Assembly (NCBI GenBank): GCA_004431415.1
Contig: QPMI01000601.1
Coordinates: 124,001 to 188,000 of the forward strand
Direction of reading: 5' to 3'
DNA length: 64,000 nucleotides
DNA from: Cyanophora paradoxa CCMP329
Taxonomy: Eukaryota > Plantae > Glaucophyta
Shown here: positions 1-64,000 of the stretch, one piece after another
Layout: every line of letters starts with the position of its first letter
Numbering within the stretch: position 1 is the stretch's first letter
The notes under the pieces: model-generated
What the model was told of the DNA's origin: nothing
What the model saw: the letters and a program-made list of their open reading frames with translations, nothing else
Database searches by the model: none
Program-made: the position numbers and the translations under genes

Positions 1-1326
1 CAATAGCTTTCTACAATGATTTTCTTTCTACAGTAGCTTTTGTTACAATAGAATTCTACTGTATGATGTAGCCGAAATATGAATGCACCCTACATTAAGC
101 AATGTCAAGTATTTCGAATACTATTCGATTTCCTTACAATAACACTCAGCATCTCCCCTTGATTCCCCCTATTATATTATATTTATATTTAAGTGGACTC
201 AAGGTTGACTCATATTAATCGTAAAAGTAGTAAAAGTATATGGATTTTGTTACGAATTCAATGCAAGGGTTGACTAAGTGGGTTGAGTTGACTCAAATTT
301 CACAGGAAATAACAATGAATCAGAGTATAAATGCATTTTTTGAATCAACTACACCAACTAACACTGAGATTTTACCAATATATGAGGTCCTTACTGAATA
401 TGGTTTGTGTGACAGGTGTGACAGGTCTATCCCAAACTTTTCTATAGCATAAAAATGAACTCTCAAAAGTTTGGGATGGACCTGTCACACCTGTCACACT
501 CGATTATTTCATTTGTTTATTCAAGTAGAATTACATAGATAAACTTCTTACTTATTGTTACTGAGTTTTTCATTATAAAAGAGATCCTTACTGAATATGG
601 TTTGTGTGACAGGTGTGACAGGATGCATTTTGTGAATCAACTACACCAACTAACACTGAAATTTTAACATTAAAAGAGATCCTTACTGAATATGGTTTGT
701 GTGACAGGTGTGACAGGTCTATCCCAAACTTTTCTATAACATAAAAATGAACTATCAAAAGTTTGGGATAGACCTGTCACACCTGTCACACCCAATTATT
801 TCAAAAATCCTAAGGGTCCCCCCTTAGAATCATTAAAACATGATAAAAACATATAAGTTTCATGTATAATTACGATTGGAGTCAATAAGAGATCGATTTG
901 TTAATATAAACAAATGAATCATTTATGGATCTTAATCGAGTTTAGCGATATGTTTCCGATTAAATGAATTAAATTTAATTAAATTTAATCGAGAAAGTAC
1001 ATGAATATAATATCGATTAAATCAATTAACTTTTAGACCAATCACACATAGTAAAATGCGGAGTTTTAACCAGAGGCAAGATCTAATTGAGATTCAGTTA
1101 TATTATTCGGAAACATATAAAGATTATCGATTCACTCAGTAAGACTAATCGGAAAATAAGAGAAATTTACGATAAAATATCGAAAAGAATACAAAATAAT
1201 CGAAATAAATGAATATTCGATAAGATATACACAGATTATCGATTGATTGAAATAGAATATACGAGATATATCAACAAAATCAATTAAGATAAGCCGAGGG
1301 TTAAAACTCCGCATTTTACTATGTGT
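1..1326. mobile_element. AT-rich terminal segment of a probable second endogenous virus/large DNA transposon (element continues left of the window)
   Basis: Abrupt AT-rich to GC-richer switch right after ...TACTATGTGT (1326). The terminal 28 bp (1299-1326) recur inverted at 1044-1071. Many AATCGA/TATCGA motifs, as in the PLV TIRs at 50276/62841. The end reads 5'-ACA, like the PLV. Confidence 0.5.
332..791. repeat. Direct repeat (~165 bp, two full copies plus a partial one), each full copy ending in a 35-bp-stem hairpin with GTGTGACAG iterons
   Basis: Copies at ~332-499 and ~623-791. Hairpin arms 407-441/465-499 (1 mismatch) and 699-733/757-791 (perfect). Half-site GTGTGACAGGTGTGACAGG at 604-622. 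Confidence 0.9.
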
Positions 1327-1817
1327 ACCGCCCGAAGAAGGAGCGCCGGACGAGTCATGATCAGAATCAGAGCTCAAATTAGACCGATCATCGGATGAGA
1401 GCCGGCACCAGACTCTGAGCCACGTTCGTCATCGTCCAAGGCATCCTGATCATTAGCGTCAGCAGCAGCCAAACTAGCGCGCCGCTCCTCCAATAAGGCC
1501 GAATCCTGAGGGAGGGTGAATTCTAGGTAGGACGTATTCCTGTCCCAGGCGGCAACAAGGGCGGCACGGTTGTAGGAAGGTGCATCAATGTCAGCCTCCT
1601 CAAGATCGCACCGAGCGCGAGCAATGCAACCTGTTGGATGGAAAATACGCCAGCAAGCTTAAGGATCGCTCCAAGTGATCGAAGGCAGAAGGCGGGGTTG
1701 ACTTTACTGCGCAAAATAGGCCGGCGCCATCTCGAGTTAGTCGAGTTAGGCCCGGCGGCCTGGAGGCAATTGCAACTTCCTGGAGCTATAGCTATGCCCG
1801 GGCTGCAAGCTTAAGGA

Positions 1818-1848
<31 letters not shown>

Positions 1849-2481
1849 ACCTCTCGTCACGGCGTTGATCATGATCGCATGAGGTCGAGGGGCGGCCCGC
1901 GGCGCCGGCTTCCGGGATCCGGGAGGCTAGCTCTTCGAATAAATATGTTCAACGTGCCGAGGCCAGGCGGTCCAGGCGGTCCGACGGTCCGACATGTCCA
2001 GGCCAGCTGCAGCTGCAGGCAGCCCCTCGGCTCTAAGCTAGAGTCCAATCTGTATCATAAAGTATCTAGAGTCAGGGCAATAGAGTAGTAGTACTAGTAC
2101 GTATACTAGTCGGGGGAGAGGCGGAGAGGCTTGTATACGTACGCGTACGTATACGTATATACACGGCAACGTATACGTAATACGTATACGTAGCTTCATG
2201 AATAAGGATCGAGAGAGCCCCCCCCCGTGACAAGGCCCCCCCCGTATCCGATCCGGGGCCAGCCGCACGCGTACGTGCACGTGTGTGATCCGGACTGACT
2301 GTGCCACGGTGCCTCCGATCCGGATCCGAGGCTCGCGATCAGATGTATTGCAATTCACGACAGTGAACTTGTTTTGATGCGCATATACAATGCCGAATTT
2401 ATAATAATAATTTTGTGTGCGAATTGATGTGGCACACATGATCATGAGGGACTTATACAGATGCGTGATCTATAGCTAGAT

Positions 2482-47879: not shown

Positions 47880-49071
47880 GCCGCGCGACGCGCCCCCGGG
47901 ACCACACTCGCCAGCCCCCTCCTCGTCTGCTGCAGCTGCTGGCCGCCGGCGTCGGCTCGCTGCTCGGCGCTCAGTTGCCGGCGGCGGCGCGGCGGCTGTG
48001 GGGGAGACGAGCGCACCAGCAGTGGTCCAGCACTATATTACTGCGGCCGCAGTGCGGCGCCAGCTGCCTCTGACTCACCACCGGTACGGCGGTACGCCGG
48101 TACCGCGGCCGCGCGGGCGTGCGACGCACGCGGCACGCCGACGCTTAAGCTTTGATCGACGTGATGAACCGTGAACGCCGGCGCAAGCTATACTCCCTCC
48201 ATCACGCGGCTTCGCGCGCCGGCTGATGAGCACGGCTCATCATGATCATGCTCATCATGATATCGATCAAGATCTAGATTCTAGAGCCGCTGAGCGCACT
48301 TGTGCCACGGTGAATCGTCGGTGATCATGATCGTGAAGCAGCTAGCGCGCGCGCTAGCTAGCGCTGGCTACTAGTGGCCGCGGCTAGCGCGCGGAGCGCC
48401 GCCGCTGCGCCGGAGGCCCGGAGCTCGAGCCCGGCGGCCTAGCGCTAGCGCTAGCGTCGACGTCGACGTCGACGTCGACGTCGACGCCCCCGCGGCCTAG
48501 GGTGGAACTTTTTTTGGGAGAGGGTACAGTAGTGCTGCCGGTTCGACGAAAATATAATCTGTCGGTTCGGTGACCTCTAGATCTGCATATGCTGACTCCG
48601 TGAGTGACGTCGACGTCGACGGCGATGGCGACATGCGCATGCGCATGCGCATGCAGGCTGATGCAGCATGCAGCATGCTCGATCGAGGGATCCGGATTCC
48701 GCGGAGACTCGAAGTGTCCGCTTCAAATTCGAGATCTAGAGGTGCACGTACGTGACGAATCACTGACGATGGGGCCACAGAATTATTGATAGATCGATAT
48801 CGAGCTTTATATATATATAACTTGTGCGTTTGCATGCGCAATATTGATATCACATTTAATAAATTAAGCTCTCTCAATTATATATAAACGCTATATAGCG
48901 CTAGCGCTATAAATTGGATATTAAATTAAGTTTTAAGGATCTCTATTGCACAAGAATTCGCGTGTTCACTGCATGATTGTGCGCACGACGCCGCACGTGC
49001 ATGCAACGGTGCAAGTTTTGCTTTTTCGTTTCTCCTGACAAAAACACTGCAAAGAAATAGTGGACCAGTGG

Positions 49072-49591
49072 CAGTGATGGAATTAATAATAAACCCCAAA
49101 AAGGGACTTTATAAGAATGATTATTAATAGTTAATAATTAGTTATTAGTAGATTAATAAATACTTCCTCATAGAAGCGCGAAACCACGCGTTGAAGGAGC
49201 GCTGCGGCACGTTTCTGGTGCTAAACACTCTTATATAAGCTGCTTTAGCATTGCGAGTGCCCTCTATATCTGTTGGGGATCGAATAAAAGGGTTAAAGTG
49301 CGACCAAGGGGGTACTGGATGGTCTGAGCTGCCGTCTGATCAGCTTATGAGCGTCATATCAAGCTGCAGAAGTGCCCAGAAGGTCTCTAGACGTGCATAG
49401 AACTGCTTTATATCGCTCTAGCATGCACAGATTCGTCATAGAGTGCAAGAAATGGTGTATCTATGGGTACCCCCCTAAACTAATAAACGTTATTAATAAG
49501 AATGGCGGTTCTGGGACCTTATTAATAACGTATTATTAATTAGTTATTAATTAGCTAATAAAAAAGGTTATGAATAAAGTTCCCATCACTG
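49072..49591. mobile_element. hAT-type MITE (520 bp)
   Basis: TIRs CAGTGATGG(G)AA...TTCCCATCACTG. 8-bp TSD ACCAGTGG at 49064-49071 and 49592-49599. Subterminal TTATTAATA repeats. Confidence 0.85.
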
Positions 49592-49614
49592 ACCAGTGGA
49601 CCAATTAGCTATTG

Positions 49615-50037
49615 TTTTTTGGTGAATTACCGGCCAGCTGCAGTGGGCCGTGGGCCGTGGCCCGTGGGCCGTGGCCACAGTCTCTACTACGACTCTCTAG
49701 ACACCAGCAGGTCCAGCACTGCGGGGGCTGCCCAAGGGGCATAAAGACAAAAAAGCAAAATAACTAAGACAATAGAGCACGAAGAAAGACAAGACAAAGA
49801 GCCAAAATCGACAATAAAAAAGAAAAGACACAGAGACAGATCGAGAAGCCTTTTTTTTGGTGAATTACCGGCCACCGTGGCACAGCCTCTAGTCTACTCC
49901 AGCACTTTGATTCCAGGCTTTGAAGAGACGACTCGGCGATATATCATATATAAGCGAACCAGTCCGAGCAAATCTAGTGAGAGAGGATGACAGACAGGAA
50001 GAAGAGCTAGCTTTAGCTAAATAGAGCTAGAGATCTA
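49615..50037 (-). mobile_element. Two decayed 3' ends of a poly(A)-tailed retroelement family (tails at ~49615 and ~49851)
   Basis: Poly-T followed by GGTGAATTACCGGCCA twice. The same 3' end is found undegraded at 51555-51612. Confidence 0.65.
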
Positions 50038-50275
50038 GATACGATTAGGGCTGGGTCCAGTGAGATCAGTGGAGGGTCGAGGGTCTCACTCCACTCACTG
50101 AGTGAGGATTTTGGCTCACTCGTACAAAGCAAAATGTATGGGGCGAGTGAGCCGGACCTCAGCCCGCGCCGCGCGGGGGGGTATCTGGCGCCATAAAATC
50201 ACGACCCAGGCGCCCCACCTAACGATTTGGGGGTACTTTTGAGTCAGATCTACATGCATATGCGTGTAGCGTAGC

Positions 50276-50563
50276 ACATGACATATGCGCATTACACCCA
50301 AATTTTAGCGCCTTTTATTTACGACATTCAGTAACAACTTTACGATTCCCGACAATCGGAAAATATCACCACCCAATAAACCCATTTAATCGAGAGATTC
50401 CCGATGAAACCTACAACAATCGAGAGATTCCCGACAATTCACCATCGGACAATCGATGAAATACCCATTTAATCGATTGAATCCATAAAAAACAACAACC
50501 ACTAAACCATTCACAGTTACACCCGTTACACTTCCACATCTCCGATTGATTCACATTACACCC
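50276..50563 (+). repeat. Left terminal inverted repeat of PLV (288 bp)
   Basis: Base-by-base reverse complement of 62841-63128. Starts ACATGACATATGCG. Internal AATCGAGAGATTCCCGA repeats. Confidence 0.97.
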
Positions 50564-50994: not shown

Positions 50995-51507
50995 ATGGCG
51001 ACCAAACGAACCGCGGACATTCTGTGTTATAACATGGACTTCTTACCTAATTCAAATAGTGTTTACGCTGATTTTTTCGGAGATAATCTAACTGATGAAT
51101 CTATTTCGATTATATTTGGTGTATACAAGTGTTTGCATCAATTCCAAGGTGTAACATCAGATATGCTACACAAATGCTTCCTTACCAATAGACTCGATGA
51201 ATTGATTCATAAAAGAAATAAAAATAATCCATCGGGCTATTTCAAGAAGTTGAAAGAAAAAGGAATTATTATAGGAAAAACTTGTTTTTCAGAGCAGCAA
51301 GACATACCTAAATTCGAAATACTTGATGACAGTTATTGTATTAATTGTGGGCATGCAGATTATCTAACAGAAAATCACCCACGATTCACAGCGCCACCTG
51401 ATTGTTATGTTTGTTGTGAATTTCTTTGTAAAAAGTGCGCATACTACGACAAACAAAAGTATTCATTCGTGCATTTCAAATGTAGCCCAAAAATGGGCAA
51501 AAAATGA
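50995..51507 (+). CDS. PLV protein with C-terminal Cys-rich zinc finger (170 aa)
   Basis: CINCGH...CYVCCEFLCKKC...HFKC. Confidence 0.75.
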   Translation: MATKRTADILCYNMDFLPNSNSVYADFFGDNLTDESISIIFGVYKCLHQFQGVTSDMLHKCFLTNRLDELIHKRNKNNPSGYFKKLKEKGIIIGKTCFSEQQDIPKFEILDDSYCINCGHADYLTENHPRFTAPPDCYVCCEFLCKKCAYYDKQKYSFVHFKCSPKMGKK

Positions 51508-51535
51508 TGTCCCAAAAAAATAACAATTAAAAACA

Positions 51536-52011
51536 ATGGATTACTACGGAGTTTTTTTTTTTTTTTTTTTGGTGAATTACCGGCCACAGTCTCTAGACAC
51601 CAGCACTGCGGGGTTTACATGTTGGATATTGAAAATCCGGAATTACATAAAGATCTTCTCGAAAACAACGGGGCTGAATGGGATCCGGACACAAAATTAT
51701 GGTTTGTCGAAGACGAAAATAACGAACTTTTAAAACAATTCCGTGTAAAACATCCGGGTGAATTCGACCAAGATTACGTTAAACAATTCCACCGCCAGTA
51801 TTTCGTGGCTGATATCAAAGCAAGACTACCGGAGATTGCGGCAAAGCGTATATTTACTCAGTCATCATTACGCAAATATATTAAAAAACAAGGCGCTACA
51901 TACGATCCTCAGTATCGTTTATGGTATGTTACTGATCCTGAAAGTGAGATATGCAAGATCTTTAAGATGTTCACACTCGAACAGGTAGAAGATCTGAGAA
52001 GACCAAATTAA
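51536..52011 (+). CDS. Tandem DUF5710-like protein; original start 51536 frameshifted by a retro-insert, in-frame ATG at 51619 retains 130 aa
   Basis: Two GAxWDPxxKLW(F/Y)V-type repeats (GAEWDPDTKLWFV, GATYDPQYRLWYV). Removing the 62-bp insert gives MDYYGVY-MLDIENPEL. Confidence 0.75.
51555..51612 (-). mobile_element. Extremely 5'-truncated poly(A)-tailed retro-insertion
   Basis: Poly-T plus GGTGAATTACCGGCCACAGTCTCTAGACACCAGCACTGCGGG, flanked by GTTT duplication (51551-54, 51613-16). Homologous to host copies at 49621 and 49859. Confidence 0.8.
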
Positions 52012-52760
52012 ACCGTAATCGTCGTGGGTTCATTACTAATTCTTATCGATTCTCTCTTTTTTATCGCTCGTCTCTTAACAAACTTGCGAAACGCTTTCAT
52101 GTCATCATCTGTTATTATTGCACGGTCTGTGTATACTTTGATGTCATAACCTTGTAACCCAGTTATAACGGTCTGATAATTGTAACCCCAAAGTCTATGT
52201 AGTTCTTTGTAAGTCTTCTTGTCCAATCCACCGTTATATTCATCGAATGCACAGTTAAACTCTTTCTCATTTCCTAAAATGTTAAAGAATACCACAAATT
52301 CCACATTACGACGAATGGTAGTAGAAATAGAACATATACGTTGGACATTGAAAATAACGGTTATACCATAATGTCTTCCGCTCGTTACCAGTTTGGATAA
52401 CACAGCCGAATTATGCATATCCAAATTAGAACCTATCATGTCATCTAAAATTATTACCAAACTATTACGCTTCTCATTGTTTTCGATTCGTTTCTTTTGC
52501 ATACTAATTAGTTTCACTACCACATTATCATCCCATTCCTCATAGATGTTACCAGGATGCGTTATATCTTTGAATTGACCGGTAAACGCAGTGGAACTAA
52601 ATACTACAATCTGATCGATCTTATCGCGCAGTTCATAAAGTAGATATTTACAATACGTTGTCTTACCAGAATTGGAGCGCCCGGCAAGCAAAAAACGCGA
52701 AGGTAATTTAGCAGTTTTAACCGGGTCGAATTCGGGAATATCATTTAAATCTATATCCAT
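52008..52760 (-). CDS. A32-like (FtsK/HerA) genome packaging ATPase
   Basis: Walker A GRSNSGKT, Walker B LVIILDD, GRHYGITVIFNVQ (arginine finger/Q motif), IRRN. Confidence 0.93.
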   Translation of the reverse strand: MDIDLNDIPEFDPVKTAKLPSRFLLAGRSNSGKTTYCKYLLYELRDKIDQIVVFSSTAFTGQFKDITHPGNIYEEWDDNVVVKLISMQKKRIENNEKRNSLVIILDDMIGSNLDMHNSAVLSKLVTSGRHYGITVIFNVQRICSISTTIRRNVEFVVFFNILGNEKEFNCAFDEYNGGLDKKTYKELHRLWGYNYQTVITGLQGYDIKVYTDRAIITDDDMKAFRKFVKRRAIKKRESIRISNEPTTITV

Positions 52761-52888: not shown

Positions 52889-55109
52889 TTAAAAGTTGGA
52901 AACTTTCAGTGTCGAAATGTTATAGCCATTGAGAACCATGACATTGTGACGGAGCGCGTAAATATCCACCTGAACCGGCGCCTCATCGGTGCAACCAGAA
53001 ACTACAAGATCCATGTAAGAACTTGAAGAATTGAAGAAGTCTTGATAACCCATGACCGAATTATGGAGAGAATCCTTACCGCTCTTGCTTAGGACAACAC
53101 CATAAACACATCCATCCTCAAAACCAAGATCAGAATTGCCCACAGTGCATCCCTTGTAGTGAGACGGGATATGGTTTACAGCAGACAGGAAACCGCCAAT
53201 AGGTTTGTTTGAGATTTCAAGCGATCGGTTGTTATGGAAAATTTGGAACTGTTCAATTTTCACATTGGAATAGTAACCAGAAAGAGTCGAATGTGTGTAT
53301 TTATCAAGCTCATTGGTTTCACGAACAGTCATAAGAATTGAATGAACCAGACCGGAAACACTCGCAAGTGTAACCTCGACATTTTGCCCATCATCCGCCG
53401 CTTTAAGCGCTCGGGTCTTCTTGTGGATCACTTCCGTAATCGGGATGCGAATACCTCCTTGTTCATTCGCCGTCTTTAAGAGGTTCTCAGCTTCCGCAGA
53501 AGCAATATTAACGAATTGACAGATTAGCGCGCAATCACCCATAGTGACATTTCCACCAGCAGGAACCAAAACTACTGAATTCTCCGACGCTCACGGCAGC
53601 TGAACGGCAGGCGCAGATGTGCGTGCTACGGGGGCTGCCCCCGGCGGGCCTCACCGATATGATTCGCGAGACCGTCACGGACGCCAAGAAAGCTGCCCAG
53701 GTCGTGCGCAAGCTGACGACGGCCATAGGCGAGCAGGCCCATAAAACGTGGGCCGCCAGATGCCAGGCGTACGCGGAGTGGGAGAAGGCGTGCGGGATCA
53801 CGAAGGTCATGAAAGAACGTCGCGCCAAGGCGAAGCGCACTGAGGCGCGCGGGCGCGAGGCCGACGCGCCGCCTGACGATACGGCTGGCAACGCTCGCAG
53901 GAAGCGCGCGGATCCGGAGCCCCGGCAGCGGGAACGCTGCAGGGAGTGCGGTGCCCTCGAGTCCCGCCACCAAGGCGGGGAAACCCTAGCCCTCTCACAC
54001 CTGAGCTGCCCGCCAGACGACTACGGCTGGGTCCGGGCTTCAGCGGCCATGCAAGTATACGACCATACGAACAGGTATGCTTGGGGCGTGGGCACACAGA
54101 GGGCGCGCCCGCGCTAGAGGGAGACACTGGGGGATTGCGGTCTGGGGGCGGGGCCGGAGGACGCAACACCAACAAATGGAGGCGGCGGAGGCGACGGCAG
54201 GAGGCGGCCAGTAGCCCAATCTACTGGGGCTGGCGAGGAGCCTGGCACACGGCGCGGCGAGGCCCTTGGGCAGCGCTGGCGGCGGACATACCATGATTGG
54301 GAGTCTTTTGTAGAGATAGGACCTCGTAGCCGGGAGTTTAGGTTGGTTTAGAAATCGATACAGCTAGCTTCCACATCATTAGTATTAGTTAGAAACCTCC
54401 TTAGCTAGATATCTAGACACGAAACCTTCAAACCTTTCGTTCATTTTGTACTTTCTAAAGCACAGCATACGACGGTCCTCGATAGTATCTAGTCGGAGAG
54501 ATTTATTGGGCGATGTGAAACTCATTGTAGTTGTGTTGTGTGCTAATGCAAGAGATTTTCCAAAACTACTGAATTCTCGCGAAAATCTACCTCGATAGTG
54601 GGCATGTCCGCAAGAACGCAAAGGGGGAAATATGCATCATCCCAGAATTGGGCAGGAATCTTAATGATATATTCCGTAGATTCGTCAGTGCTAAGGCGAC
54701 TAATTTCACGGAAATATCCAAGAGAAGCGCGCATAGTAGCCATGGTTGCTGTGTCATTGTCTACCAGAGCATTAACAGTGATCCAATCGCCAGGGATGAT
54801 ATACTTAAACCCACCGTGGACAAAACGAACCTCTTTAATGTAAGAAGCGCCACCATTGGGAAGAGTGCAAGCAACACCACCACCGGTAGTAACCTTAAAG
54901 TAAAGTGAAACGCCACTTAGTAGTTGCTTGCGTGGTAGATCAAAATAAGCGGTCGTTTTGAAACCGAAAGTATTACCACGTGGGCGAACCTGTTCAAGGA
55001 ACGGCTTATATTTGGGGTTGGTTCCGATTTGGAGACCGGGAGATAGATAAATTTGATCCGATCCGGGAGTAACGAGGAGTTCTTTAAGGGTCGTTCCAGT
55101 AAGCGCCAT
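52889..55109 (-). pseudogene. Major capsid protein (double jelly-roll, ~408 aa reconstructed) interrupted by a LINE fragment
   Basis: ORF 55109-54543 and ORF 53569-52889 join in frame (...DFRENSVVL|VPAGGNV...) once the insert and one 19-bp TSD copy are removed. Beta-rich, lies between ATPase and penton, PLV-MCP-like motifs (FDLPR, FPL). Confidence 0.8.
53585..54559 (+). mobile_element. 5'-truncated non-LTR retrotransposon (975 bp) with 19-bp TSD
   Basis: TSD CCAAAACTACTGAATTCTC at 53566-53584 and 54560-54578. GC-rich insert. ORF remnant TWAARC..AEWEKACGIT resembles the C-terminus of the element at 8.3-11.4 kb. Confidence 0.88.
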
Positions 55110-57458: not shown

Positions 57459-57688
57459 TCCTTTTTTCCCGGCGCGATCGCTGAGGAAGACAGGCGCAAC
57501 CGCGCTTAAAACAATACACTGTTTGAGTTATTTTTAAGACCATCGAATGGTGGTCGACCCTTTTGTTATTTTTATTAAACCCTCAAAGCGGATTTTGTGG
57601 ATTTTGCGGTGTCGCCAAAAAATGACGCAATGTATGAAAAGCACTTAAAGAAATAAAATATAGTGTATATAATAAGAACGCCTATAAG

Positions 57689-60600
57689 ATGTTTTCATTT
57701 GCAACAGTGAAGAATATCATCGGATCTGTGGTAGAGTCCATTAGCAATCTACCCGGTATTCGCAGCATCCCGTTTATCGGTAATGCAATTAAGCGAATCG
57801 CTAATGATCGTTTCGAAAGAGTCGTAAAGGAACTCGAAGCAAGGAAGAGTGAGAAGAAGGAGAAGACTAAGGAGGAAATCCGCGAAGAGCGGAAGAAGCG
57901 CAAGCAGGAGAAGAAGGAGAAGCGCGCACTGAGAACGATTAAGAACATTCAGAAGCAAGAAGGGAAGAAGTTCAAGGGAAAGGTAAGGCGTCTCATTCGT
58001 CGTATTGAAGCAGAAAATGGCGAAACTGTTTCGGTTCATGTAAGATTCTATACACTTCCCGATGATATCGATAATCTACCACAGGGCTATGATGTTATCT
58101 TACACAAAGACACGCCTTACGTTGAGACACAGAAGAGCGGAAAGAGGGCATTAATTATGACTTGCCCGAAAGACGTATTGATTGCAAGACTTACCGAAGT
58201 CGAAGACGAATTTAATAACTTTCTTGCCGTTTGGTCGCTCGATACTATCGCCGCTTTCCTTCTTAATATCGCTGATCGTAACGCAAATAACAGGGATTAC
58301 AATTATGTGCGAATTTTCGCTTACCCACAACTCCGTGAGTCTCCTATTTCATATCCCGATGTTATGACAATTGAGGAAATTGTAGTAAGTGACAATACCA
58401 CTGTATACCCTCTGAATGAAAGAGCGCTTAGAGACGGAGAGGCGCCTAAGATCGTTTCGCGTTTCATCAAATATTCACTTAATGGTGGCGCAAAATCTGT
58501 ATTGGATCAGATTAAACCCGATGGGTCACTTATCATCAAGGATTGCTTAATAGAGGCGCTACATCAGGTCATTGTGAAATCTTTCGAATATGCCCACAGT
58601 ATCAGCAAATACAAGAAGGTTAAGTATTCGAAGGAATGGCTTTATGAGCAGATCAAAGGACACGCGCCTACTGACACATCCGATTGGGGGACGTCCTTTA
58701 ACGAAATACTACCATTCTTGCAAAAGTGGCGCATCCGCTTTATCGCAATCGGAAAAGACGACAAGGTTATACATTCTCTGTGTTACAAACCTACCCGGAC
58801 AAATTCACACCTTGTCCCGGCAAGCGTTTACGTTCAGATCTCTAACGATCACGTGTATGTGTTGAATAAAGACCTTAGTAAACTTGTGCGATCTTTCAAT
58901 GGAACAGCGGCGCGCGAAACAAAAGCGGTGGGTTCATCGTCGTTAAAATACAAGATCAAAACACAGTTTAACGATATCAGCTATCCGGCATACTCTGAGG
59001 AAGAAATAGTGGAGATTGTTAAACGTGAGAAGGAAAACGCAACCTCAAAAATCACGATCACTTACAGTAAACCGTTATTCGAATTGTTGGGAAGTTTCAG
59101 AAGAGCAAACCACGAAGTTAACGCGACTATTTCCGATGAAGGTATAGTTAGCTACATCCATTACAAGATCGAAGACAAAGATGTAGTTATACTACCGCCA
59201 GGCAATATGGTGAATATGGATGATGTCGACGTTAACCTTAGGGATGAAGAACACCGAAAACTCTTTAACGAAATGTCGCAGATGCTAAACCGTGCGCTCA
59301 TTAACAAACATGTTAAGAGCAAATACAACCCGGAGACATTCGCCGCATTCACGAAAGGACAACAGAGCGCATTAAATGGGTTTTTCGTGACTTCTAACGC
59401 TGAATTGCGGGAATTGTTTGAAGGTGTTATGTGTGGCGCGATCGATACGTATAAATTGGATATCTCCAAAGCATACACACATATCGTATCGAAACTCATC
59501 AAAAACTTCCCGGTTTTCAGCTCATTCGATCGATTCGAAAAGGTTGTGGTAACGTGTAGCGATGATATCGAAGCGGACGCCTTCTATTCAGTGAAAGTAA
59601 GAGCGAAACACTTTACGGTAAATCGTAAAGACCAATTGATTAACAACATGTCGCCATACAAACGTATCCTTGTAGACTCAAAATACAACCTTCTGTATGG
59701 TGGCGTGTTGAAAGAGTTCTACGATGACATCCGCGACGACGTGATTATAGAAGCAGTGGTAAGACCATACCGGGTTGTTAAAAACGTCACATTGCAGGCT
59801 TTCAAGCAGTTGTTTGCGTCTAACCTTTCGATCAAGGAAAAGAAGGATATCAGTAATCACAATATCGGGAAGTTTGGTAAGAAATCCCAGCAAAAAGTGC
59901 AAACAACGATATTCTTTAACAAGAACGACGCGCTTAACTTTGTCCGAGAGAACGGCGGTAAACTGAGATCGCTAAATTTCGATTCAAAGAAGCCGAAGCG
60001 GACGACTGTAAGGAATGAGGCAAAGACGGAGACACCGATGTTATGGTATGTAAACCAGCTCGGAGAAGAGAAGACGCTTATAGATGGTTTCCTACCTATC
60101 CAGTGTCAGATTTACAGTATCATGCGTGGGGTCATGTATAAACTGTCTAAGGATCTATTGGCTAATGGTGTTGGAGTTCTACGCATCAGAACCGATGAGT
60201 TTCTTATAGACAAGCCATACCCATTTGAGCCGTTTGACCGCGACCTTTTCGAAAACACCGGAAAGTATGACGTGAAACCGTTTAATGTTACTCCGATTAT
60301 ATCACAGGAGTCAAAGAAGAAGCGGAATAATGCTAATGGGTGGATCACATTCGACAGACTGAGACAACGCGACGAGAGGTTTATTACGGTCGAGAAGGTG
60401 AATCATAAGGTGTTCAAGTTTAAGGATGAATACAACGTGGAAGCCATCGTGAATGCTATGGACGGAAAGGGTAACGTGATTATTCGCGGTGTCAAACCCG
60501 GGACAGGTAAGACCACGTTAGCGAAGGCGATGACACGGAAGTATGGTAAAAACTGTCTTTTCATTGCGCCGACTAACATTCGATGCAAGCAGCTACGCAT

Positions 60601-61786
60601 GGAATTGAAAAAGGAGTGGAGCGAAGTTGACATGGTCGATGTGAAGACTATCTACAAGTCACTACATCTGAATATCGACCCCGAGAAGATGAATGACAAC
60701 GTAGGTAAACAGGTTACCGATTTATCCAAGTATCAATGCTTTGTAATCGATGAGGTTTACCAGTTCCAGATTCGCGAATTGGAGGCGTTGAGAGACATTA
60801 TGACTATCCATTTTCCGGATAAGTTATACATCGTTACGGGTGACCCATTCCAGATTCCACCGATTCAATTTATCGATATCGACCATCGCGACTACTACAA
60901 CAAGATCTTTGACCGGTTGTTTAAGAATGAGGTTTACCTACAAGTCGGAAAGCGACACAAAGACCCCGAAGATCAGGTTAAAATAGATCAATTGAAACAT
61001 GATCTATTCGTTACAAAAATGCGTGTTCCGGAGGCAGCGGCGCGGTTGGGTCTTGCAGTTGTGAATGAAATGGAAAAAGGCGACATTTCCATAGTTCAAT
61101 CTAACCGCAAGTCCGCGCAAGTGAATAATGAAATGCACAGGATGCTTTACGGTGTTGACATGGTTTATAAGGAAGGCGTGCATTTGATTGCAAAGTATCA
61201 AATCACAACAAATGAGGGTATCATTTATCGCGGATTTGAATATGAAGTAATCAAATACGAACCCGAAAAGGTTCTTACGCTAAAAGACATCGACAGCGAA
61301 GAAATCTATAATGCGAAGCCCGAAGACATCAAATATTTCGCATTATCTCATGGTTTCACTTGTTACAGCATTCAGGGCGACACTATCAGAGATAAACGCG
61401 TAGTTGTCTATCAGTCGACCTCGCCATACATGACCGCTGAGAGTTTCTATGTTGCAGTGACGCGAACCGAAAGACTTTCTGACACTGTAATTTTCGTAGA
61501 TGAGGACGAGAGACGGAGAGTTGGTATGGAGAAGGCAGAGTTTGCCGTTAAAATCAGATCACACAAGGCAGAAGACAAGAAGTGTAACCGTGAGTTTGAC
61601 GCAGCAGATTACGTCGATTGGGAATGGAAGGGTTACCGCTTTGGTAAGCAGCATGGACGCTGTGGAAGGTGTGGCGATATTATGGATCCGGAAGATGCAA
61701 CAGTAGACCGTTACAACAACGCAATCGCCCACATTAAGCCGAACTGTTTCTTATCTCATAATAGGTGTAATTGTGCAGCGCAGTAA
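57689..61786 (+). CDS. Replication polyprotein: basic N-terminus, vOTU-like domain, derived protein-primed PolB, SF1 (Pif1/RecD-like) helicase, HNH-like finger (1365 aa)
   Basis: DCLIEAL...NDHVY. LDISKAY / KDISNHNIGKFGK / IRTDE. GTGKT, VIDE, GDPFQIPP, SIQGDT, YVAVTR. CGRCG..TVDR.NN..AH.K.NC..SH.RCN. Confidence 0.88.
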   Translation: MFSFATVKNIIGSVVESISNLPGIRSIPFIGNAIKRIANDRFERVVKELEARKSEKKEKTKEEIREERKKRKQEKKEKRALRTIKNIQKQEGKKFKGKVRRLIRRIEAENGETVSVHVRFYTLPDDIDNLPQGYDVILHKDTPYVETQKSGKRALIMTCPKDVLIARLTEVEDEFNNFLAVWSLDTIAAFLLNIADRNANNRDYNYVRIFAYPQLRESPISYPDVMTIEEIVVSDNTTVYPLNERALRDGEAPKIVSRFIKYSLNGGAKSVLDQIKPDGSLIIKDCLIEALHQVIVKSFEYAHSISKYKKVKYSKEWLYEQIKGHAPTDTSDWGTSFNEILPFLQKWRIRFIAIGKDDKVIHSLCYKPTRTNSHLVPASVYVQISNDHVYVLNKDLSKLVRSFNGTAARETKAVGSSSLKYKIKTQFNDISYPAYSEEEIVEIVKREKENATSKITITYSKPLFELLGSFRRANHEVNATISDEGIVSYIHYKIEDKDVVILPPGNMVNMDDVDVNLRDEEHRKLFNEMSQMLNRALINKHVKSKYNPETFAAFTKGQQSALNGFFVTSNAELRELFEGVMCGAIDTYKLDISKAYTHIVSKLIKNFPVFSSFDRFEKVVVTCSDDIEADAFYSVKVRAKHFTVNRKDQLINNMSPYKRILVDSKYNLLYGGVLKEFYDDIRDDVIIEAVVRPYRVVKNVTLQAFKQLFASNLSIKEKKDISNHNIGKFGKKSQQKVQTTIFFNKNDALNFVRENGGKLRSLNFDSKKPKRTTVRNEAKTETPMLWYVNQLGEEKTLIDGFLPIQCQIYSIMRGVMYKLSKDLLANGVGVLRIRTDEFLIDKPYPFEPFDRDLFENTGKYDVKPFNVTPIISQESKKKRNNANGWITFDRLRQRDERFITVEKVNHKVFKFKDEYNVEAIVNAMDGKGNVIIRGVKPGTGKTTLAKAMTRKYGKNCLFIAPTNIRCKQLRMELKKEWSEVDMVDVKTIYKSLHLNIDPEKMNDNVGKQVTDLSKYQCFVIDEVYQFQIRELEALRDIMTIHFPDKLYIVTGDPFQIPPIQFIDIDHRDYYNKIFDRLFKNEVYLQVGKRHKDPEDQVKIDQLKHDLFVTKMRVPEAAARLGLAVVNEMEKGDISIVQSNRKSAQVNNEMHRMLYGVDMVYKEGVHLIAKYQITTNEGIIYRGFEYEVIKYEPEKVLTLKDIDSEEIYNAKPEDIKYFALSHGFTCYSIQGDTIRDKRVVVYQSTSPYMTAESFYVAVTRTERLSDTVIFVDEDERRRVGMEKAEFAVKIRSHKAEDKKCNREFDAADYVDWEWKGYRFGKQHGRCGRCGDIMDPEDATVDRYNNAIAHIKPNCFLSHNRCNCAAQ

Positions 61787-62853
61787 TGGATAACATATTA
61801 TCTTACAAGAAATACCGCCAGAAGTTGATAAACGATAAAGTGACATTTGATGAAGCAGAATTAAAGAAACGTTTTATAAATTCCGAAGTGCATCAGATAT
61901 TCAAGAAACCAAAGAAACCAAAGACATTTCTAAGAATTGTTGCTATGCCTTATTCCTTTCAGGTGGACATAATGAATTTTAAAGGATATCAAACCGCGAA
62001 TAATGGGATTTACAAGATGATAAGTTTTATTGATATATTGAGTCGGAAGGCTTTTGTGTATCCGTTTAAGAAAAATGAAGAAATCCGTAATATTTTGAAT
62101 AAGTTTAAGGTTGAGGCAGGTAAGGTTAATGGATTGGCGGGAGATCATGAGTTTAGCAGTGCGATGTATAAAGAATGGTGTGATGCTAACGGTGTGAGAT
62201 TATATACAGATGTGGCGAAAGATGACCATGTAACCGTTGGAAATAAGTTAGGAATTATTGACAGATTCACACGGACATTTAAGCAATATTTGAGGAAGGC
62301 GATGACATCAAAGGGAACCACAAAATGGATAGATTTAATAGGTGAAGTTCTTTCGATTTACAATGGTTCACCTCATAGTTCCTTAAAAGATGATTCACCC
62401 AATGCAGTATTTGCAAGTGATCAGAAACAGCTTTTTATACATCTACGTGATGTTGTGCATAACAAGCATGTGCAAGAGAAGGAAAAGAAGGATACAGTAA
62501 AACCGGGTGATACTGTGCGAGTGTTGGAAGGTAAAAAAAGTGCGTTTGAGAAAGAAGGCGCGCGATTCAGTCAGAAGGTCTATAAAGTCGGAAGATCTGA
62601 CGGGAATAGGTTTAAGGTGTTGGAGGATATGGACGGAGACGAGAAGGAGGTAAAGAGGCGCTTTAAGAAGCAAGAGTTACAGAAGGTGAGCGTGAAAGAT
62701 GTAATTAAGATACCGTCGCAAAAACGAATAGAACGAGTAAAAAAGGTAAATGCTGTGAATCAGAAGATGAAGAAGGAAGGGATTAAACCGAATCGAAAAG
62801 TAACCGTGAGGAAGAAGTATAATTTAAGAAGTAGTGCAAAGGGTGTAATGTGA
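61786..62853 (+). CDS. Retroviral-like (rve) integrase with SH3-like C-terminal domain (355 aa from ATG 61786)
   Basis: FQVDIM, FIDILSRKAFVYP, GDHEF, GIIDRFTRTFK, W.DLI......YN..PHSSL..SP, VKPGDTVRV. ATG overlaps the upstream stop (TAATG). Confidence 0.93.
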   Translation: MDNILSYKKYRQKLINDKVTFDEAELKKRFINSEVHQIFKKPKKPKTFLRIVAMPYSFQVDIMNFKGYQTANNGIYKMISFIDILSRKAFVYPFKKNEEIRNILNKFKVEAGKVNGLAGDHEFSSAMYKEWCDANGVRLYTDVAKDDHVTVGNKLGIIDRFTRTFKQYLRKAMTSKGTTKWIDLIGEVLSIYNGSPHSSLKDDSPNAVFASDQKQLFIHLRDVVHNKHVQEKEKKDTVKPGDTVRVLEGKKSAFEKEGARFSQKVYKVGRSDGNRFKVLEDMDGDEKEVKRRFKKQELQKVSVKDVIKIPSQKRIERVKKVNAVNQKMKKEGIKPNRKVTVRKKYNLRSSAKGVM

Positions 62854-63128
62854 ATCAATCGGAGATGTGGAAGTGTAACGGGTGTAACTGTGAATGGTTT
62901 AGTGGTTGTTGTTTTTTATGGATTCAATCGATTAAATGGGTATTTCATCGATTGTCCGATGGTGAATTGTCGGGAATCTCTCGATTGTTGTAGGTTTCAT
63001 CGGGAATCTCTCGATTAAATGGGTTTATTGGGTGGTGATATTTTCCGATTGTCGGGAATCGTAAAGTTGTTACTGAATGTCGTAAATAAAAGGCGCTAAA
63101 ATTTGGGTGTAATGCGCATATGTCATGT
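62841..63128 (-). repeat. Right terminal inverted repeat of PLV (288 bp)
   Basis: Exact reverse complement of 50276-50563. Confidence 0.97.
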
Positions 63129-64000
63129 GTAGCGCTAGCAGCACCGCGCGCGATGCTGACCATGACCAATCTGAAATTCGAAACGACCTCTCAGAGTCTC
63201 GACATTTTAGAAGCCCGCGGAAACAGCTGGCAGTTACGGCGCGTAGCGCCTGAAAACACGGCGAAATCTGGGTCGTTTTAGGTCGTTTTTCGCGTATACG
63301 AAAACGTACCCCCTGCTCACTACAGTGACTGAGTGAGTGGGACGCAAAAAGCTCACTCACAAAGTGAGCCCGCGGACCTCACTGGGCGCAGCCCTAGATA
63401 CGATCAACATCTGACTCAGTGAGGGAATTCGAAGCACATGTCCATCACTAACAAGCGCAGGACAGAACTGATCATGAACAAGATAAATCACAGGAAGCAG
63501 ACAGGTAAGCGGAACAACAAGACGACGTCGACGTGCACGTGGAGGCTGAGGCGAAACTTTTGAAACAGGCCTAGGACGATGCGAATCGAAAGGGCAGAAT
63601 TCGAACTACGGCACGAGCGCGAGGAGGACACAGAAGACGGATCAGGCGGATCAAGAGCAGGCCAGGCCTAGATCAAAGGAATCACTAAAGCCGGTCGGGG
63701 TCGACGTCGAGGCGGGCAGTCACGTTGCACACTGAGTCGAACTGCAAACGACGGCGAACGCGAACGACGTCGACAGGTCGAATACGAGGACTAGCGCTGG
63801 AATGAATTCTATAGCTAGCTATAGCATCAACACGTGCACTACGATCAGAATCCGAACCAGACCGAACTAAACTACAAGACGGAGAACTCGGAACGCCGGC
63901 GCCGGCGTCGGCGGGATACCGTAGTACGACCAGCGAAGCAGAATTCGAAGATGAAGCCAGCTGCAGATCTAGATCATAGGCGGCAGCTCGCGATCGGTAC

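Follow-up and report, generated by a model that had tools for sequence, protein, structure and literature searches.

A predicted PolB-S1H replication protein encoded by a polinton-like element in Cyanophora paradoxa

A 64,000-nucleotide stretch of DNA from Cyanophora paradoxa CCMP329 (contig QPMI01000601.1 of assembly GCA_004431415.1, positions 124,001 to 188,000; hereafter the window, in whose numbering all coordinates are given) carries a 12.9-kb element bounded by inverted repeats, and one open reading frame (ORF) of that element, at 57689-61786 on the forward strand, is the subject of this report. The ORF very probably encodes the PolB-S1H replication protein of an integrated polinton-like virus (PLV), predicted to copy linear DNA by helicase-coupled, protein-primed synthesis, likely after an OTU-type domain has released the N-terminal part of the polypeptide. 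A first-pass annotation, made from the DNA letters alone, had described the gene as a single replication polyprotein joining a viral OTU (vOTU)-like protease, a derived family B DNA polymerase of the protein-primed kind (pPolB), a superfamily 1 (SF1) helicase and an HNH-like finger. Every sequence string quoted there lies where it was placed, within this one ORF, and the strings are not chance occurrences, as their columns hardly vary among 104 homologues and the folds proposed agree with those of two domains whose structures were predicted. All four domain calls withstood the comparisons described below, and the catalytic residues, whose lack of conservation had been named as grounds for rejecting the proposal, proved to be conserved in the homologue columns.

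Relatives and domain order place the ORF in the PolB-S1H family

The ORF begins with ATG and runs for 1365 amino acids without an internal stop, and its homologues point to a PolB-S1H ('Tlr1-like helicase') replication protein. An exhaustive HMMER search with residues 1-910, at a threshold of E<=1e-3, returned 104 proteins, 43 of them at E<=1e-10 and the best at 1.6e-30. The relatives are mostly 1150-1400 residues long, with the matched span covering residues ~240-860 of the query. Twenty of them were looked up: many are encoded on contigs of 4-30 kb, one has an informative name (P0016, E 3.1e-20, which is DAC81521.1, 'PolB-S1H [Capsaspora MELD virus 1]'), and none is named as a Tlr1 or transpoviron protein. 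Neither IMG/VR nor the phage collection nor a word-index search yielded a close relative. Word-index protein searches with the whole protein and with residues 905-1365 gave nothing at E<=1e-3, and the same kind of search with residues 270-1290 (E<=10) gave a single protein, P0002, of 1299 residues and 23% identity. IMG/VR scans with the protein, the element's ATPase and integrase, alignment A1 and P0002 as queries, which detect close relatives only, returned no relatives, and tblastn of the protein against phage records gave no match.

Four alignments of the relatives were used. A2 holds all 104 with the query (105 rows) and is the source of the column counts below; A3 and A4 hold 74 and 64 of the 104 and served for the folds of residues 130-480 and 480-910, respectively; and A5 holds 37 near-full-length relatives with the query (38 rows) and served for library scans. 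Cys286, His388, Asp591, Lys719 and Asp836 are kept jointly in 75 of the 80 rows with a complete helicase. Judged by its similarity to members, its vOTU Cys/His pair upstream of the core, its exonuclease-less core with motifs A, B and C, and its SF1 helicase followed by an HNH-type finger, the ORF is a divergent member of the published PolB-S1H (Tlr1-like helicase) family.

Six parts can be told apart along the protein. The N-terminal region (residues 1-252, 57689-58444) has low conservation and occupancy in the family alignment; it has a hydrophobic start, then a Lys/Glu-rich segment (residues ~40-110), then a poorly conserved part at the position of the terminal-protein (TP) domain, and Pfam and NCBIfam scans of it gave no family, only weak coiled-coil-type matches. 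An OTU-fold cysteine protease domain (residues 253-398, 58445-58882) follows, recognised by an AlphaFold2 model, structure matches and the Cys/His pair. Column conservation delimits a linker or small alpha/beta part without exonuclease motifs (residues 399-507, 58883-59209), for which structure matches are weak (Z<=3.1). The phi29-type polymerase core (59210-60295) was assigned from an AlphaFold2 model, Foldseek, VIA-align 2, column counts and the hhalign register; the SF1B helicase of RecD/Pif1/Dda-like type (residues 917-1280, 60437-61528) from Pfam and from the family profile against PDB; and the C-terminal zinc His-Me (HNH/endonuclease VII-like) finger (residues 1296-1365, 61574-61783) from PHROG, Pfam and a tail profile against PDB.

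This architecture is already published and brings no new biology. Krupovic, Yutin and Koonin (2016), in their treatment of Tlr1-like helicases, place these proteins in PLVs, Tlr1 and transpovirons and describe an unannotated N-terminal region of ~450 residues, a protein-primed polymerase core with motifs A, B and C, an SF1 helicase and, in PLVs, an HNH domain; the core lacks the exonuclease and motif 4, and the polymerase was judged inactivated (PMC5499653). The later models of Krupovic et al. (2024), as set out in their passages on PolB-S1H, show a variable N-terminal domain, a domain at the TP position and a palm with both terminal protein regions (TPR1 and TPR2); the vOTU Cys/His pair is described as conserved in all sequences analysed, and DNA polymerase activity and vOTU self-processing are predicted for the family (PMC11161782). 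Polymerase activity is predicted there because mavirus, pipolins and other active polymerases likewise lack the first Asp of motif C. The statement in the first-pass annotation that such fusions are generally regarded as polymerase-inactive therefore holds for the 2016 view but has been superseded by the same authors' 2024 prediction (PMC11161782), and its suggestion of an active, self-processing replicase agrees with that prediction and is not a new idea.

The query has the same order of parts as the PolB-S1H proteins described in the two papers, namely a variable N-terminus, vOTU, an exonuclease-less pPolB with motifs A, B and xTD, SF1, and an HNH-type finger as in PLVs (PMC5499653, PMC11161782). 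It differs from the known members in its identity of at most 20-31% to any relative found, in its very GC-rich host and in several lineage-specific substitutions at conserved columns. Its element resembles Tlr1 in being small and in having an A32-type ATPase together with an rve-like integrase. The OmPLV of Oxyrrhis marina also has a large PLV replicase in which an SF1 helicase and a pPolB are fused, but according to the description of that protein the helicase comes first, the exonuclease domain is complete and no TP or vOTU was found; its authors judged the fusion to be independent (PMC12721341).

The polymerase core resembles that of phi29

Motif A (LDISKAY, residues 590-596, 59456-59476) carries Asp591 (59459-59461), motif B includes Lys719 (59843-59845) and NIGKFG (residues 725-730, 59861-59878), and motif C is IRTDE (residues 833-837, 60185-60199) with Asp836 (60194-60196). 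The derived pPolB had been annotated with its motifs at these very sites, and both the model and the structure search recover a phi29-type core there. The two Asp residues said to be retained, in motif A and in the second Asp position of motif C, are indeed nearly invariant in A2 (Asp591 in 100/101 rows, Asp836 in 94/94). Conservation extends to Tyr596 in motif A (93/100), to Lys719 (98/99), Asn723 (90/99) and Gly727 (97/98) in motif B, and to Thr835 in motif C (82/93).

An AlphaFold2 model of residues 480-910 has a mean predicted local distance difference test score (pLDDT) of 83.4 and a predicted template modelling score of 0.80; in it a strand ends at Asp591, a helix contains Lys719 and a hairpin turn contains Asp836. 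When this model was compared with PDB by Foldseek, all nine matches at E<=1e-3 were phi29 DNA polymerase (best 5.1e-7), and the next match, at E 0.07, was unrelated. The best match in VIA-align 2 was again phi29 (2pyj_B, Z 15.3, root mean square deviation (rmsd) 3.6, 269 residues aligned, model 29-390 to phi29 99-504). The archaeal, alpha and epsilon family B polymerases, which are RNA-primed, reached Z<=8.7 in that comparison, most with ~155 residues aligned. About 110 more residues thus align with phi29 than with the RNA-primed enzymes, the TPR1 and TPR2 insertions not being delimited one by one. Because the phi29 match (Z 15.3, 269 aligned) far exceeds those to other family B polymerases, the domain appears to be specifically of the protein-primed type, and in the predicted structure residues 480-910 are a phi29-type pPolB core without an exonuclease.

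Compared with phi29 polymerase (PDB 2PYJ, 2PY5, 1XHX), its best structural match by a wide margin, the motif A Asp, the motif B KxxxNxxxGKF and the second motif C Asp line up at a sequence identity of ~9-11%, whereas the query lacks the 3'-5' exonuclease domain, has Arg for Asp456, shows no recognisable KxY motif or thumb, and has its core fused to a protease and a helicase. The absence of recognisable exonuclease motifs had been annotated and is upheld: no conserved acidic column or motif that could represent ExoI-III occurs between the protease and residue 543 at the polymerase core. No residue in the segment 394-474 reaches 30 of the 38 rows of A5, two do in the segment 474-543 (a Tyr and a Pro column), and the N-terminal ~100-120 residues of phi29 stay unaligned to the model in VIA-align 2. 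Downstream of motif C is a G-K-x-[KR]-x-E block with Gly858 in 86/89 rows. PF03175 matched neither the query nor any of the 38 family members scanned; in ESM Atlas the clusters nearest to the protein carry PF03175 DNA_pol_B_2 (score 0.90), which we treat as a lead only. A family scan of the remaining ORFs of the element matched none to a polymerase family, which leaves the present ORF, as annotated, the only polymerase candidate in the element.

The domain before the polymerase is predicted to be an OTU protease

The proposed vOTU-like catalytic pair is formed by Cys286 (58544-58546) in DCLIEAL (residues 285-291, 58541-58561) and His388 (58850-58852) in NDHVY (residues 386-390, 58844-58858). 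Among the A2 rows that have a residue at these columns, Cys286 is conserved in 88 of 90 and His388 in 93/93, and the model supports the annotated protease by showing an OTU fold around the pair. The AlphaFold2 model of residues 130-480 has a mean pLDDT of 72.6, mostly >=90 over residues 239-409 and <50 over residues 130-230; the stretch at the TP position finds only structure matches of Z~3. A long helix starts with Cys286 and a strand with His388.

In VIA-align 2 against 48,161 representative chains, 19 of these reached Z>=5 and none reached Z>=8, and ranks 1-31 were all OTU-type enzymes, covering model residues ~124-269, that is, residues 253-398 of the protein. For two of these rows, 3von and 8yka, the OTU assignment is presumed, as it does not appear in their titles. 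The top match was yeast Otu2 (Z 7.1, rmsd 3.9, 117 residues aligned), and others were the tick-virus and nairovirus vOTUs, OTUD1/2/3, OTUB1, and the turnip yellow mosaic virus (TYMV) and maize rayado fino virus proteases. The OTU assignment is firm because an unbroken run of one family is joined by the conserved dyad and by its placement in the fold; residues 253-398 form an OTU fold in the model, with a conserved Cys/His pair and a predicted peptidase activity. Set beside OTU deubiquitinases and viral OTUs (yeast Otu2 7PL7, Tacheng tick virus 7Y5M, Crimean-Congo hemorrhagic fever virus 3PHU, TYMV 4A5U), the domain has a similar fold (Z 7.1-4.5 over 83-117 residues), with its Cys and His likewise opening a helix and a strand, respectively; it differs in an identity of only 7-15%, in having no Pfam OTU match and in lying inside a replicase. 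Foldseek of the same model against PDB gave 0/38 matches at E<=1e-3, though ranks 1-5 were OTU deubiquitinases; against BFVD it gave one unnamed match at 8.8e-4 and weak ones to mavirus polymerase and giant-virus OTU proteins. ESM Atlas returned unnamed clusters only for residues 255-420.

The helicase is followed by a probable zinc finger with an unusual active site

The helicase motifs run from GTGKT (60500-60514), with the Walker A Lys941 at 60509-60511, to VAVTR (61451-61465). The SF1 assignment made at first reading is borne out both by Pfam, which from residue 917 matches AAA_19 (1.3e-6), AAA_30 (3.9e-6) and Viral_helicase1 (6.1e-5), and by the family profile, which in PDB finds a RecD-like protein (9kwf_B, 4e-17), RecD2 (1.8e-13), RecD (5e-12), Pif1 (~1e-6) and also TraI. 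Lys941 is kept in 87/88 rows of A2 and Glu1022 in 84/84.

The tail runs from CGRCG (61661) to RCNC (61774), and its finger residues are Cys1325/Cys1328, Asp1340-Arg1341, His1348, Asn1352, His1357, Cys1360 and Asn1361; the family consensus is CxxC...[ST][IV][DN]R[IL]DNxLAHxKxNCxLxCxxC[NQ]xxK. A finger is present in 69 of the 80 relatives with a complete helicase, and 6 of the other 11 stop right after the helicase. One relative without a zinc finger, P0103 (1415 residues), has a different tail after the helicase; its strings (…VYRIE…GKVYVGST…) may be GIY-YIG-like, the alternative tail reported for Tlr1.

PHROG family phrog_1035, 'endonuclease VII', matches the query at E 0.03 and 24 of the 38 A5 members at E<=0.01 (best 1.9e-9), and Pfam HNH matches 2/38. 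A profile of 18 tails (the query and 17 picked by hand among the first 45 rows) gave full-span matches in PDB only to HNH enzymes, all of them weak: Gme HNH (4h9d, 0.15), PacI (0.3) and Cas9 (3.4). tblastn of one family tail against phages gave only weak matches (E 0.01-0.5), one of them annotated as endonuclease VII. The family shares with the HNH, endonuclease VII and PacI fingers (4H9D, 3LDY) the CxxC...CxxC zinc site and conserved Asn residues, and the profile spans the whole finger. In the 4h9d alignment, however, the family Asp-Arg falls on the Asp-His of the enzyme, so the general-base His appears to be replaced by Arg1341. His1348, four residues before the conserved Asn, is His in 65/69 fingers and Tyr in 2, and by analogy with PacI it may replace the missing general-base His: the mostly viral group of PacI, as described in PMC5714182, likewise lacks the catalytic His and uses a loop Tyr instead, whereas here the conserved loop residue is His1348. 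The zinc His-Me finger of the first-pass annotation is thus a probable one, the sequence pattern and the weak profile matches fitting a zinc-bound beta-beta-alpha core, but the nuclease it was said to provide is less certain, the general-base His being Arg.

The element and its other genes

The ORF lies in DNA of ~42% GC, while the rest of the window has 66-79% GC from 8 to 48 kb. The element is bounded on the left by a terminal inverted repeat of 297 nt (50267-50563), 99% complementary to its partner on the right (62841-63137). It encodes an A32-type packaging ATPase (52008-52760, minus strand; Pfam Pox_A32 3.4e-14) and a DUF5710 protein. Directly downstream of the large ORF is a retroviral-type integrase-like ORF (61771-62853, plus strand), weakly matched by Pfam rve (E 0.073) and, over residues 67-222, by the foamy virus integrase core 2x6n (E 0.045); it overlaps the last codons of the large ORF and extends 13 bases into the right inverted repeat, a packing that is compact and, by analogy, virus-like. 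The ORFs at the capsid position gave no family match, and their capsid assignment is by position only.

Low-GC DNA extends ~1.4 kb beyond the left inverted repeat (48800-50266). A 28-nt motif, TTTTTTTTGGTGAATTACCGGCCAC..., occurs at 49613-49640 and 49851-49878, outside the element, and at 51563-51590 inside it, immediately upstream of the gene for DUF5710. Summed depth in sequencing run X1 is highest, well above all other bins, at 51341-51787 (15,967). The low-GC flank and the motif may be what is left of a second, related element, or a promoter-like repeat that is shared. At window positions 1-2000 lies another stretch of low GC (0.41), which shows no DNA similarity to the element at E<=1e-5.

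Copies of the element are numerous and vary

Other copies were viewed through the contigs of sequencing runs. Eighteen runs of one organism, none recorded as RNA, hold at least 84% of the sampled words of the ORF, and the contigs of four runs contain many copies at 90-100% identity; in run X1 the 672 pieces comprise 317 at >=99%, 179 at 95-99% and 176 at 90-95%. In one X1 contig (depth 505; the shorter side has 162 letters), position 50261 is followed, after 3 other letters, by 63129, so that 12,867 bases are passed over. Such a flank-to-flank junction suggests that the element is polymorphic for its presence, or that the contig comes from a paralogous site without it. At the element ends (TAGCG...), which are self-similar, no target-site duplication was callable.

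The copy differences listed inside the ORF are the 23 best supported of several hundred, and 18 of these 23 change a third codon position without altering the amino acid (P 1.3e-5 in a binomial test against one third). Because the listed differences are mostly synonymous, the gene appears to have evolved under coding constraint. Contigs of X19 and X20, guessed to be RNA, carry the ATPase and capsid-position genes and the ORF from ~61116 and none over 57599-61115, a pattern that speaks neither for nor against expression.

Discussion

In the mechanism we favour, the OTU-fold protease would likely free the N-terminal part of the polypeptide, the phi29-type core would carry out protein-primed synthesis of the element's linear DNA, this synthesis would be coupled to the protein's own helicase, and the tail would cut or bind DNA, with His1348 perhaps in the role of the general-base His. 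That the polymerase is active and protein-primed, that the protein cleaves itself and that the tail cuts or binds DNA are predictions here, as in the PolB-S1H passages of the 2024 paper (PMC11161782). Several observations weigh against this reading, beginning with the sequence libraries: Pfam and NCBIfam scans of the protein and its pieces gave no family outside the helicase, leaving the OTU and PolB domains without a match; the family profile found no PolB or OTU match among PDB sequences; and hhalign of the family against phi29 alone was insignificant (probability 0.2, E 0.35), in a register that sets IRTDE on phi29 CDTDS, with Arg834 on Asp456 and Asp836 on Asp458. The OTU Z scores (<=7.1) lie in a middling range for the tool. 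In the finger, Arg stands at the general-base position in the query and in 68 of the 69 relatives that have one. The remaining points belong with the alternatives that they favour.

The OTU domain may not cut its own polypeptide, acting instead as a deubiquitinase on host or helper-virus targets or as a structural part of a protein that works uncleaved. We consider this unlikely, although the family offers no obvious cleavage motif: no conserved Gly-Gly site was found across 86 rows, with GG upstream of the Cys in 35/86 and between the His and motif A in 23/86 at varying positions, and the Leu-Asn-Gly-Gly at residues 264-267 of the query is not conserved. The nearest solved structures are deubiquitinases, and the 2024 account mentions plasmids in which the priming part is left attached to the polymerase (PMC11161782). 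On the other side, the Cys/His pair is found in nearly all members, always within the replicase just upstream of the polymerase core, which fits a polyprotein role, and polyprotein processing is known for viral OTU-like proteases such as that of tymoviruses (PMC11161782).

It is about equally doubtful that this copy is a decaying endogenous relic, of PolB-S1H kind but no longer encoding a working enzyme. On the minus strand, ORFs 52889-53569 and 54543-55109 are two parts of the gene at the capsid position, which is interrupted by a 975-bp insertion, GC-rich in its core, within 53566-54578. A direct repeat of 19 bp, CCAAAACTACTGAATTCTC, stands on either side of the insertion, at 53566-53584 and 54560-54578. 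The frame resumes across the insertion, with ENSVVL on both sides, and contigs of X1 and X8 join 53566 to 54576, so some copies are without it. The insertion looks like a host repeat because its summed depth is several-fold above that of its flanks. Because its capsid-position gene is interrupted, this copy of the element is probably not an autonomous virus. The replicase gene, too, shows signs that could be read as decay: contigs of X8 and X19 have a 13-nt deletion at 61250 that would shift the frame in the helicase (0 of depth 308.5 in X1), and the query deviates at 18 of 100 columns conserved in the family, the third-highest number among the 38 rows (range 1-19), the deviations including motif V His to Tyr (His in 34/38), Trp1252 to Ser and the third zinc Cys to His. 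Yet two other family members are equally divergent (19/100), the frame is open for 1365 codons between inverted repeats that are 99% alike, all five catalytic residues of the protease and polymerase and the Walker A and B residues are intact, and the listed copy differences are, as noted, mostly synonymous.

The polymerase-like domain could also be a catalytically dead scaffold, leaving only the helicase (with the protease and finger) at work and the element to be copied by a host or helper-virus polymerase. Inactivation was argued in the 2016 treatment of Tlr1-like helicases (PMC5499653), and the first Asp of the DTD motif is lacking in 93/93 rows (Lys in 44, Asn in 20, Arg in 9, His in 8, others in 12), with Arg834 of the query occupying the phi29 Asp456 position. 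There is no exonuclease, no KxY motif is recognisable in the query or the family columns, and a thumb is unlikely because only ~50 poorly modelled residues lie between the G-K-x-[KR]-x-E block and the helicase. Such a scaffold is nonetheless improbable, since it would not be expected to keep Asp591, Tyr596, Lys719, Asn723 and Asp836 at the frequencies given above, since the active mavirus and pipolin polymerases are also without the first Asp (PMC11161782), and since the family scan found no polymerase among the remaining ORFs of the element.

Against the literature compared here, what the aligned sequences add is that nearly all members of the family have the finger, with Arg in the general-base position. 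A speculative extension, which we would not ourselves rate as probable, is that the finger is a vertically inherited part of the PolB-S1H core and not a homing-endonuclease invader, with a PacI-like, His-less site that nicks or holds the terminal repeats during replication or integration.

A helicase-coupled, protein-primed replicase being the preferred reading, the ORF adds a divergent, full-length and uninterrupted PolB-S1H gene from a very GC-rich eukaryote, in an element that is multi-copy and apparently polymorphic for its presence in the host. Counted column by column over 104 relatives, conservation supports what was predicted in 2024, namely that these proteins are real polymerases with a working protease, activities that for now remain predicted, and the C-terminal finger emerges as a stable feature of the family with an unusual active site. 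As an intact natural copy, the gene would be a reasonable substrate for a first enzyme assay of the PolB-S1H family.

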